Positions 77 to 1,358 of a stretch of 10,079 bases of DNA are shown piece after piece. The notes beneath the pieces were generated by a model. The model was not told the origin of the DNA, made no database searches, and worked only from the letters and a program-made list of their open reading frames with translations. The translations under genes were made by a program, and so were the position numbers. The number at the start of each line of letters is the position of its first letter. Within the stretch, counting starts at the first letter, position 1. Source of the stretch: Pseudoalteromonas phage PM2. The stretch lies in assembly GCF_000840405.1 (NCBI RefSeq), contig NC_000867.1; one strand, written 5' to 3'.

Positions 77-550
77 TTAGGCGCGTTGTTTATCGCCGTA
101 TTTCATTACAATTTCTTTTAGTGCTAAAGAGTCCGACATTTTAATCAAATCATTGCCAATTGTTTTAAGCGTTTCACTCGCAGCAACCAAGTCATGTAAA
201 TGGTCAATTTGATTTTGAAGCGCGTTAACATGGCTTTCATTGTAGCGCACCGAGCTTTGTAAAAAATCCAGCTTGTTAATATAACTCGCATCGTATTTTT
301 TACCGCGCGGTGTCCACAAATAACCGCCCCGACAAATATAAAACCCGCCCCAGTCTTTATGTAAAGCCATACCGCCGTTAATGCGCTGCTTAAGCATAGC
401 AACAGCGCGGGGGCATGGTTTGTTTTCAGCAATCCAGCGTTCAAGCGTTCGCTCTGAATTTATAAATAAAAACTCCATTGCGGCGCGTCGGTCAAGCTTG
501 CCAAAATTCATAAAGCCAGCCCTAAAAAGTAATTGTTTGAAATCAGTCAT
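77..550 (-). CDS. XV: P15, described as an early transcription repressor; N-terminal HTH plus DUF3653-like domain (XafT-like)
   Basis: 157-aa ORF with SD AAGGA (complement of 556-560). HTH-like segment RRAAMEFLFINSERTLERW, then DWGGFYICRGGYLWTPRG, then a coiled-coil-like C-terminus. Confidence 0.9.
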   Translation of the reverse strand: MTDFKQLLFRAGFMNFGKLDRRAAMEFLFINSERTLERWIAENKPCPRAVAMLKQRINGGMALHKDWGGFYICRGGYLWTPRGKKYDASYINKLDFLQSSVRYNESHVNALQNQIDHLHDLVAASETLKTIGNDLIKMSDSLALKEIVMKYGDKQRA

Positions 551-574
551 ATTAATCCTTTGAGTTCCATTGAC

Positions 575-753
575 ATAGTTATTTAACCAGCGCGGAAGAT
601 TTAACGATGATTTTTTTAGATTGCTAAACAGAGTTCAATTAATAAAATTGATTAATGGTAAATTATAGAAAACTTATATAAATAACAGTTAGATAGGATT
701 TTAACACGCAACAGGGAAAAGGCGACAGAATGACGGATTTATAGTTATTTAAC
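575..753 (+). repeat. 13-bp direct repeat ATAGTTATTTAAC (575-587 and 741-753)
   Basis: Exact copies read from the sequence. The second copy overlaps the outer XerD arm of the dif-like site. Confidence 0.9.
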
Positions 754-774
754 ATAATATAAATCGTAAGCACG
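747..774 (-). other. XerC/XerD recombination site (dif-like, candidate attP or resolution site)
   Basis: Minus strand reads CGTGCTTACGA-TTTATA-TTATGTTAAAT. The XerD arm is identical to E. coli dif, the 6-bp spacer differs from TGTATA at one base, and the XerC arm matches cer (GGTGCGTACAA) at 8/11. Confidence 0.88.
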
Positions 775-849
775 TCAACAGCCTACAGCCCCTTATTTAC
801 CTACCTTTACCCAAAACAACAACGACATTTTGACGGGGGTGTTAATTAC

Positions 850-1128
850 TTAAGCAACGCTTTTTCGCCACAATTTAGCCTGTTCTTCATTTCCATTTCT
901 TTCGGCCTTGTGAGCTTCAAGCAAAGCCATGCCCTTTAAGGGTTCGGGGTGTTCACCTACCAGTAAAAGCTTTAATGCTGTGTAGTCTGAAAATTCAGAG
1001 TTTCCAGTTCTTACAGTGCTAAGTGTTTGTTTTGGGATGCCTGTTAACTTACTAACCATATAGTCAGAGTCAATATCTACAACGCTTTTAAACCAATCAA
1101 GCAGTTCAATCGAAGTTGTTATTTTCAT
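850..1128 (-). CDS. XVI: P16, small HTH transcription repressor
   Basis: ATG at 1128 gives 92 aa (the track's TTG at 1155 is too close to the -10 at 1164-1169 for an RBS). HTH-like SDYMVSKLTGIPKQTLSTVRTG. Divergent from the Rep operon. Confidence 0.88.
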   Translation of the reverse strand: MKITTSIELLDWFKSVVDIDSDYMVSKLTGIPKQTLSTVRTGNSEFSDYTALKLLLVGEHPEPLKGMALLEAHKAERNGNEEQAKLWRKSVA

Positions 1129-1163
1129 AAGTTTTGTACTCGTTACCCGTCTCAATTAATTTG

Positions 1164-1192
1164 ATTATAGACCTAGTCAACAGCTATTGCAT
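1164..1192 (-). promoter_or_regulatory. Leftward early sigma70 promoter for genes XVI/XV
   Basis: Perfect -10 TATAAT (complement of 1164-1169) and a weak -35 ATGCAA (complement of 1187-1192) at 17-bp spacing. Confidence 0.65.
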
Positions 1193-1221
1193 TAGTGCGG
1201 AGGCATTGACCTAGTGCGGAG
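1170..1221 (+). repeat. Operator-like direct repeats in the divergent promoter region
   Basis: TAGTGCGGAG at 1193-1202 and 1212-1221; GACCTAGT at 1170-1177 and 1208-1215. Confidence 0.8.
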
Positions 1222-1235
1222 CTAATGACTATCAT
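1206..1235 (+). promoter_or_regulatory. Rightward early sigma70 promoter for the Rep operon
   Basis: -35 TTGACC (1206-1211), 18-bp spacer, -10 TATCAT (1230-1235). Confidence 0.72.
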
Positions 1236-1274
1236 CACCTTTAGCAAGGGCAACCGCTGCTAATCTTTGGCTGG

Positions 1275-1310
1275 GCGGTTACTGGTTTTATATACAGTAA
1301 CCGCTTTTTT
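1275..1310 (+). terminator. Terminator/attenuator-like hairpin in the early rightward leader
   Basis: Perfect 10-bp stem GCGGTTACTG (1275-1284) / CAGTAACCGC (1295-1304), 10-nt loop, then TTTTTT (1305-1310). Confidence 0.75.
1280..1299. promoter_or_regulatory. LexA (SOS) box
   Basis: TACTGGTTTTATATACAGTA (minus strand TACTGTATATAAAACCAGTA) is CTG-N10-CAG with full TACTG/CAGTA flanks and an AT-rich spacer, as in the gammaproteobacterial consensus TACTG(TA)5CAGTA. Confidence 0.75.
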
Positions 1311-1358
1311 ATGACGCCAGAGTGAACAAGTTTTTTAATCAGCCAAAGGTGAAAAAAT

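Follow-up and report, generated by a model that had tools for sequence, protein, structure and literature searches.

Genes and sites of the PM2 early region

The window that was analysed, 10,079 bp in length, is the complete genome of Pseudoalteromonas phage PM2 (100% identity to AF155037), and the present study concerns its positions 77-1358. An earlier note on the same DNA had described there a DUF3653-like gene, a dif-like site, a small helix-turn-helix (HTH) repressor divergent from the Rep operon and a LexA box, and had taken them together as a module like those of integrative mobile elements exploiting Xer recombination (IMEX). All of these elements were found. On the minus strand, the open reading frames (ORFs) a (77-550, 157 aa) and c (850-1128, 92 aa) of the GenBank annotation were taken as gene XV, coding for P15, and gene XVI, coding for P16, a mapping that follows from their domain content and from PMC12715192. 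Between them, a dif-like attP site is situated at 747-774, also on the minus strand. Divergent from the P16 gene, the early-right operon (1359-3719, plus strand) comprises in GenBank ORF d (1359-1583) and ORF e (1580-1822) as well as gene XII (1815-3719), which encodes the rolling-circle Rep protein P12 (Phage_GPA, E 7.6e-124); the LexA-like box lies at 1280-1299 in the leader of this operon. All PM2 ORFs are intact according to the GenBank annotation and the ORF list, and P15, the attP site and P16 are kept together in the relatives of PM2. The statement that the genome is devoid of an integrase also held, as neither PF00589 (Phage_integrase) nor PF00239 (Resolvase) matched at E<=1 in six frames of the whole PM2 genome, and Pfam scans of the PM2 early proteins gave no integrase or recombinase.

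The Xer/dif lysogeny core of PM2 is already known. PMC12715192 (Commun Biol, December 2025) places the attP of PM2 between p15 and p16 at NC_000867 747-763 (ATTTAACATAATATAAA), reports the same 17-nt motif to be identical in phage Cr39582, assigns P15 as a homologue of XafT and P16 as an RstR-like repressor, which together form a conserved lysogeny module, and calls for a re-evaluation of the label 'virulent' for PM2. The dif-type module of double jelly-roll prophages described there is the same system as the one of PM2. However, that paper surveys Vibrio genomes, whereas our analysis deals with junctions in Pseudoalteromonas, estimates of selection, the LexA-like box and the structure of the leader RNA. 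Furthermore, corticoviral prophages have been reported to be linearised between genes XV and XVI (PMC1950889), and NO16-like vibriophages to carry dif-like sites (PMC9966536). In the phage collection, the closest relatives of PM2 are Cr39582, which is 88.8% identical over positions 1-2400, and GXT1010.

Attachment site and prophage junctions

Read along the minus strand from 774 to 747, attP has the sequence CGTGCTTACGA TTTATA TTATGTTAAAT, i.e. a degenerate XerC-side arm (774 to 764), a central region (763 to 758) and a perfect XerD arm (757 to 747). The 11-nt XerD arm occurs only once in the PM2 genome, and together with the central region it is identical to the main dif of Pseudoalteromonas. 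The latter could be recognised by the 22-mer TATAA-TTTATA-TTATGTTAAAT: 78 of 140 Pseudoalteromonas genomes contain a single copy of it, there were no control hits, and for this reason it is taken as the main chromosomal dif. At all three large-contig sites that were examined, the GC skew is positive to the left and negative to the right of the site. A second conserved dif-like site, ACAACCnATAA-ATTACG-TTATGTTAAAT, was noticed once in each of three Pseudoalteromonas genomes (G001:C2:209258-209285, G002:C16:345621-345648 and G003:C152) and is probably the dif of a second replicon.

Relatives of PM2 sit at the replication terminus, integrated at dif. They were searched for with a profile of P16, built from 13 homologues (58-95% identity), in the 140 Pseudoalteromonas species genomes at E<=1e-8. 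The profile matched in 8 of these genomes; six matches on large contigs were fetched, and the other four places, on short contigs, were left out. An order-wide search with the P16 profile matched 5 of 401 genomes, all of them distant. P16 and P15 are present in all six fetched prophages, and the packaging ATPase P9 and the capsid protein P2 in five of them. Each of the six is bounded by two direct dif or dif-like sites, which is what the earlier note had asked about when it proposed to look for dif copies flanking PM2-like prophages. The site outside P15 reads nnnnCCTATAA-TTTATA-TTATGTTAAAT and represents a full dif with the XerC arm of the host; at the site outside P16, a perfect XerD arm follows a degenerate arm that stems from the phage, and the same central region is found in five of the six prophages. 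Prophage L091 has the central region TTTACG at both ends, which indicates that the central region covaries with the target. The attP of PM2 itself is identical at 25 of 28 nt to the phage-side junction of prophage L094. The direct dif sites, the switch of GC skew and the joint conservation of P15, attP and P16 all favour the reading as an IMEX-type element that integrates at dif.

Two of the prophages deserve separate mention. L091 (G452:C2, oriented 1886-10908) is a 9.0-kb element with dif-like ends, P16 and a P12-type Rep, in which no capsid genes were detectable; the P15 homologue that it carries is split into two parts, separated by about 1.2 kb. L095 (G455:C3) stands apart from the other five prophages in that its central region is GGGACA on the P16 side (oriented 1960-1987) but TTTATA on the P15 side, and this mismatch could point to a tandem element or to a different history of strand exchange.

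From these junctions a course of integration can be proposed. Host XerD would bind the perfect XerD arm at 747-757, and XerC would be recruited to the poor arm at 764-774. P15, which like XafT of TLCphi has DUF3653, would activate XerD without FtsK, and the central region TTTATA, which attP shares with the main dif, would permit complete strand exchange, with both integration and excision proceeding through host XerCD at dif. After integration, the prophage would be flanked by a full dif next to P15 and by an attP-like site next to P16. The same event would cut the leftward P16-P15 operon and thereby part p15 from its promoter. ORF b/b* of GenBank (663-773, minus strand, 36 aa), whose gene status is doubtful and whose only family match is PHROG 32177, overlaps attP by its coordinates and thus would be split by integration; either it is not a gene, or it is made only from the circular form.

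The conservation around attP is high as well. The P15-P16 intergenic region that contains it (551-849) is 98.3% identical to Cr39582, i.e. there are 5 differences in 299 positions, compared to a synonymous divergence of 0.26-0.49 in the flanking genes, and the attP core of Cr39582 is identical to that of PM2. Conserved blocks are also present in comparison with GXT1010. The stretch under this constraint, or recent exchange, is much longer than the 28-nt attP, and accessory sites or a p15 promoter may be situated in it.

P15, a XafT-like protein

Pfam DUF3653 matches ORF a at E 2.5e-4 with 21.6 bits, the cut-off of the family being 22.4 bits. When 18 aligned P15 homologues (44-97% identical) were scanned singly against Pfam, all of them matched DUF3653 (PF12375) at E<=0.01, the best one at 2.8e-7, and several carry the database name DUF3653 protein. 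The AlphaFold2 model of P15 (pLDDT 80) is composed of four short N-terminal helices, a small beta region at residues 62-87, into which the DUF3653 match falls, and a long helix at 88-156. XafT consists of an HTH and DUF3653, binds XerD, and most DUF3653 genes adjoin dif (PMC6744903, PMC9226527); the N-terminal XRE-type HTH of XafT is missing from most DUF3653 proteins (PMC6744903). In the P15 family, HTH_17 was seen in 1 of 18 members (E 0.0078).

The position of the gene points in the same direction. Its start is 197 nt away from attP in PM2, it adjoins the dif-side junction in all six prophages, and a genome-wide scan for P15 led to three Pseudoalteromonas loci, at each of which a P15-like gene is found beside a dif-like site. 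At two of these loci (P. aliena and P. xiamenensis), which were examined further, none of the other genes of PM2 is present. Of the DUF3653 homologues placed in this way beside dif-like sites, the one in L036 (G001:C1) at 1411-2139 is 79% identical to P15 and the one in L040 (NZ_CP072135) at 13662-14356 is 52% identical. In P. xiamenensis, the P15-like gene lies at the edge of an island that also contains a tyrosine recombinase; the island is on an 856-kb chromid, at a place of converging gene orientation. Between PM2 and Cr39582, the P15 genes differ by 25 synonymous and 5 non-synonymous changes, giving a ratio of non-synonymous to synonymous divergence (pN/pS) of 0.05; on this estimate, the XafT-like gene is under strong purifying selection. 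For P15 and the XerD encoded in a Pseudoalteromonas genome that bears a prophage, complex prediction scored 0.00, which gives no verdict and is uninformative either way.

The closest known parallel for this part of the module is TLCphi, in which a gene for a DUF3653 protein is also placed next to a dif-like attP and which likewise lacks an integrase. XafT of TLCphi binds and activates XerD without FtsK and has a dimerisation domain; P15 of PM2 has DUF3653 and a long C-terminal helix. The two elements differ in their attP: the XerD arm is non-canonical in that of TLCphi, where 8 of 11 positions deviate, whereas in PM2 the XerD arm is perfect and the XerC arm degenerate.

P16 and the early-right promoter

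ORF c matches PHROG 4441 'HTH DNA binding protein' at E 3.6e-29 and also PHROG 638 'transcriptional regulator'; Pfam gave no match to it, and no peptidase domain was found. The pN/pS of P16 is 0.21 between PM2 and Cr39582. Three 19-bp direct repeats, of the repeat families D1 and D2, occupy 1167-1223 on the plus strand (starts 1167, 1186 and 1205, with a 19-nt period). They overlap the -35 element of the rightward promoter, and their sequences differ among PM2, Cr39582 and other relatives. The repeats are probably phage-specific operators, i.e. specific for immunity, and P16 as a small HTH repressor without peptidase probably acts on them at the divergent early promoters.

The best sigma-70-like promoter of the early-right operon is located at 1206-1235 on the plus strand (-35 TTGACC at 1206-1211, an 18-nt spacer and -10 TATCAT at 1230-1235) and agrees with 10 of 12 consensus positions. 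The -35/-10 pair is found at the same place in all related leaders compared, and in the promoter scan no alternative promoter overlapping the LexA-like box passed. The transcription start of the Rep operon can be placed only tentatively, from the position of this promoter. The promoter names P1207 and P1193 yielded nothing relevant when searched for in the literature.

A LexA-like box in the leader of the Rep operon

The LexA-like box TACTGGTTTTATATACAGTA (1280-1299) agrees with 11 of the 12 specified positions of TACTGT-N8-ACAGTA. For the search, a 20-nt LexA consensus was used; the box is the sole site in the PM2 genome within 3 mismatches of it, and 0 of 200 shuffles gave a match. The looser pattern CTGK-N8-ACAG is not significant alone, since at least one match occurred in 31 of 200 shuffles. 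In three Pseudoalteromonas genomes, TACTGT-N8-ACAGTA at up to one mismatch has 16-20 sites per genome compared to 5, 17 and 5 sites for a reversed control pattern, which means that there is no enrichment in G002. Among 10 ORFs next to the best host boxes, three code for RecA, two for UmuD-like S24 peptidases and one for YebG.

Among known systems, CTXphi is most similar in this respect, as it also combines a small repressor divergent from the rolling-circle Rep operon, a nearby site for host LexA and integration at dif by host XerCD. LexA and RstR co-regulate CTX (PMC3323433). However, the LexA site of CTX lies in the intergenic promoter region between rstR and rstA, whereas in PM2 the box is found in the transcribed leader, inside a hairpin. 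By analogy with the joint action of LexA and RstR in CTXphi, host LexA bound to the hairpin-encoding DNA of PM2 would add a block to early transcription that is relieved by the SOS response. CTXphi reportedly integrates as folded single-stranded DNA, whereas PM2 is double-stranded.

The box and hairpin of Cr39582 are identical to those of PM2. This phage was obtained from a lysogen by mitomycin C induction and has a different spike gene (PMC5968719), whereas PM2 was isolated as a plaque-former. Because P16 has no peptidase domain, a site for host LexA would explain the mitomycin C inducibility. A LexA box of PM2 or of corticoviruses was not found in the literature searched. The text of PMC12715192, supplements aside, makes no mention of 'LexA', 'SOS' or 'mitomycin', and the word 'LexA' is absent from the texts of PMC9966536, PMC11630473 and PMC1950889 as well. 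Hence, the SOS/LexA part is apparently an unreported addition.

A conserved structured leader RNA

In the RNA, the LexA-like box is the centre of the hairpin H2 (1275-1310, plus strand; repeat I2), which consists of arms at 1275-1284 and 1295-1304, a 10-nt loop and TTTTTT at 1305-1310. H2 has a free energy (dG) of -18.8 kcal/mol (z -4.9), and 0 of 200 shuffles fold as well; the terminator scan did not list it because the loop exceeds 8 nt. At this position, a hairpin is formed in all 13 aligned leaders, box or no box, with 93.7% of cells paired and compensatory changes at 7 of 11 pairs. In a consensus fold of 9 sequences the outer stem covaries (7 of 13 pairs compensatory), while the inner TACTG/CAGTA shows two wobble-compatible changes only. 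Each of the five hairpin types with a box has a G+C stem followed by a U-run, an arrangement that the four types without a box lack.

H2 is enclosed by a long-range helix (1265-1348, plus strand; repeat I3), in which CTTTGGCTG (1265-1273) pairs with CAGCCAAAG (1340-1348) and the 3' arm abuts and overlaps the Shine-Dalgarno sequence AAGGTGA of ORF d. The helix belongs to the minimum-free-energy fold of 14 out of 16 leaders, and in 13 of the 16 a duplex energy as good as the observed one was attained by no more than 6 of 500 shuffles. Pairs were counted on an alignment of 13 rows, from which L017, L018 and L095 had been dropped as too divergent: 90.4% of cells pair in the helix compared to 82.0% after shuffling (0 of 500 reach the observed value) and 28-46% with the partner columns slid, and compensatory changes occur at 10 of 18 pairs, although the structure was derived from the same sequences as counted, which favours the helix. 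Covarying arms among the relatives are TTGGC/GCCAA, TCGGC/GCCGA and CTCAGTC/GACTGAG, and further ones TTGGCGTGG/CCACGCCAA, TTGGCAGT/ACTGCCAA and TTCAGGTC/GACCTGAA. A second, upstream copy of the 3' arm (GCCAGAG in PM2, 1316-1322) offers an alternative pairing. In addition, the extreme 5' end of the transcript (TCACCTTTAGC, 1235-1245) is complementary to the Shine-Dalgarno region (GCCAAAGGTGA, 1342-1352).

The leader, in which a G+C stem and a U-run are enclosed by a helix involving the Shine-Dalgarno region, resembles intrinsic terminators or attenuators combined with Shine-Dalgarno sequestration. It differs from known attenuators in that Rfam gave no leader family for it, only two weak matches at 1-75 (E 0.14 and 0.43). 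In the Rep mRNA, the long-range helix would occlude the Shine-Dalgarno sequence and enclose the terminator-like hairpin, and thereby set the output of the Rep operon. The conserved structured 5' leader (1235-1358), which did not turn up in the literature searched, is a new observation and probably sets expression of the Rep operon.

LexA operator or RNA hairpin

The same palindrome can be read as DNA or as RNA. We slightly lean to the view that LexA binds the box and regulates early transcription of PM2. Nearly as likely is the alternative that the palindrome at 1275-1304 acts as an RNA element only, i.e. as the hairpin of a terminator or attenuator in a leader that sequesters the Shine-Dalgarno sequence, and that its likeness to a LexA box is inherited stem sequence without regulation by LexA; this possibility has to be taken seriously, even if we would not place it first. 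It can draw on the strength of H2 with its U-run, on the occurrence and compensatory changes of this hairpin in all 13 aligned leaders and on the covarying helix around it. Moreover, many data on the box itself have to be set against LexA. The palindrome is needed anyway as the core of an RNA hairpin. The box occupies about +39 to +58 of the putative start; its beginning is 45 nt past the -10 element, and it therefore does not cover the promoter. In 26 related leaders compared at the same position, which are not all independent since several IMG/VR contigs duplicate genome loci, the box has at most 1 mismatch in 12 in 10 leaders, 2 mismatches in 4 and 3 in 2, and there is no box in the other 10; in the box-less prophages no replacement box was found elsewhere. 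GXT1010 keeps the stem with the N8 spacing, but its box is broken. In L010 and L090, with 3 mismatches, the change of CAG to CGG breaks the box but keeps the RNA pairing (G.U), and like TGCTG in L008 and L011 this change is wobble-compatible on the plus strand. At distant P16-like loci, 0 of 6 have a LexA box, though 2 of the 6 sit beside a Vibrio-like dif.

On the other hand, several points speak against a pure RNA element. While the outer stem covaries freely, no covariation is seen in the inner TACTG/CAGTA. The five box-bearing stem contexts (GCGGT-, GCGGT- with a different loop, AGC-, GTGAC- and GCCAAC-) have loops of 0-10 nt, and in all of them the CTG-CAG spacing stays at 10 nt with a T-run after it, i.e. 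the core TACTG-N10-CAGTA persists; in contrast, the four box-less hairpin types (GXT1010, L014, L061 and L094) have TAC..GTA spacings of 9-12 nt and no T-run. The half-site ATACAGTA is kept while outer stem and loop change, and it is kept even where the inner bases are unpaired, namely in PM2 and L071. The box of L059 is perfect (12/12). Finally, the motif is the one of which the host has perfect copies upstream of recA (3 loci), umuD-like S24 genes (2) and yebG (1). Taken together, the SOS part of the earlier note stood only partially: the good LexA match and its conservation in a subgroup were confirmed, whereas the absence in part of the leaders, the position downstream of the putative promoter and the role as hairpin core speak against it.

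A combination of both functions can also be imagined, though we regard it as speculative and rather doubtful. In that case, the 30-nt palindrome of PM2 and its close kin would be a dual switch on the Rep operon: as DNA it would be an operator for LexA, and as RNA it would form the terminator hairpin of a leader that sequesters the Shine-Dalgarno sequence. Loss of LexA upon DNA damage and refolding of the RNA would jointly license replication in a double jelly-roll phage with a repressor devoid of peptidase. Integration would limit itself, since p15, the gene of the XerD activator, is severed from its promoter by recombination at attP, and PM2, the 'strictly lytic' corticovirus of the textbooks, would be an SOS-inducible temperate IMEX.

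Functional module, relic or resolution site

In our opinion, the best overall explanation is that 77-1358 represents the lysogeny and early-control module of a dif-integrating corticovirus, and we consider this likely; that the IMEX-type module is intact in PM2 is very probable. Some observations nevertheless weigh against lysogeny by PM2 itself. The XerC-side arm of its attP agrees with the arm of the host at only about 4 of 11 positions. The P15 of PM2, taken alone, stays under the Pfam cut-off of DUF3653. Foldseek with the P15 model against the PDB had no match at E<=0.001, the best matches to small HTH proteins (Aca1) being weak (probability 0.25, E>1), and phmmer with P15 found none among PDB sequences at E<=10. 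Above all, PM2 has been described as strictly lytic, with lysogeny never seen and gene XV dispensable in the laboratory (PMC1950889).

The phenotype and the degenerate XerC arm would fit a relic, i.e. a temperate ancestor used attP and P15, and PM2 is now obligately lytic with a pair that no longer supports integration in its hosts. We regard this as improbable, and the suggestion of the earlier note that the module may be vestigial is disfavoured accordingly by the estimates of selection. The pN/pS of P15 against an inducible prophage is as low as 0.05, the 299-nt intergenic region contains just 5 differences, and attP is nearly identical to the junction of a resident prophage. Furthermore, its central region and XerD arm equal the dif that is single-copy in 78 of the 140 genomes of the genus, and all ORFs are intact. 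The degenerate XerC arm is common to the integrated relatives and thus a trait of the type rather than a sign of decay. This conservation argues for function of the module, or for very recent function. It is similarly improbable that attP and P15 mainly serve, like cer or psi, to resolve multimers of a small circular replicon, so that rolling-circle products and plasmids of the pAS28 type stay monomeric: the leftward operon and the promoter region have also been reported from the maintenance region of pAS28 (PMC1950889), PM2 packages a circular genome and plasmid XerCD sites resolve dimers (PMC9226527), but relatives are demonstrably integrated at dif, and resolution and integration are not mutually exclusive.

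Further features and searches

At 48-69, a bidirectional terminator-like hairpin lies between the ends of the late operon and of gene XV; it has 8 pairs, 6 of them G-C, and a following T-run, and the terminator scan found it on either strand. P14 (3907-4212) has only sub-threshold zinc-ribbon matches (Zn_ribbon_recom E 0.0039, TFIIS E 0.074), which appear to be in line with its annotation as late-transcription factor and not with a recombinase. A tblastn search of the phage collection gave PM2, Cr39582 and GXT1010 only, and the Vibrio relatives thus lie outside this sample. The sole match in the plasmid collection was the P. xiamenensis chromid. In a search of sequencing runs no RNA run was listed, and the best DNA runs share <=0.32 of the sampled words.

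Implications for corticoviruses

For decades PM2, the type corticovirus, has been regarded as strictly lytic, and a working-looking Xer module changes the reading of its biology and ecology. To the known core, our analysis adds the evidence from junctions in the host genus and the evidence of selection rather than decay. It also adds a host LexA box as a candidate explanation of how mitomycin C induces PM2-like prophages, and a conserved, covarying 5' leader that probably sets the expression of the Rep operon.

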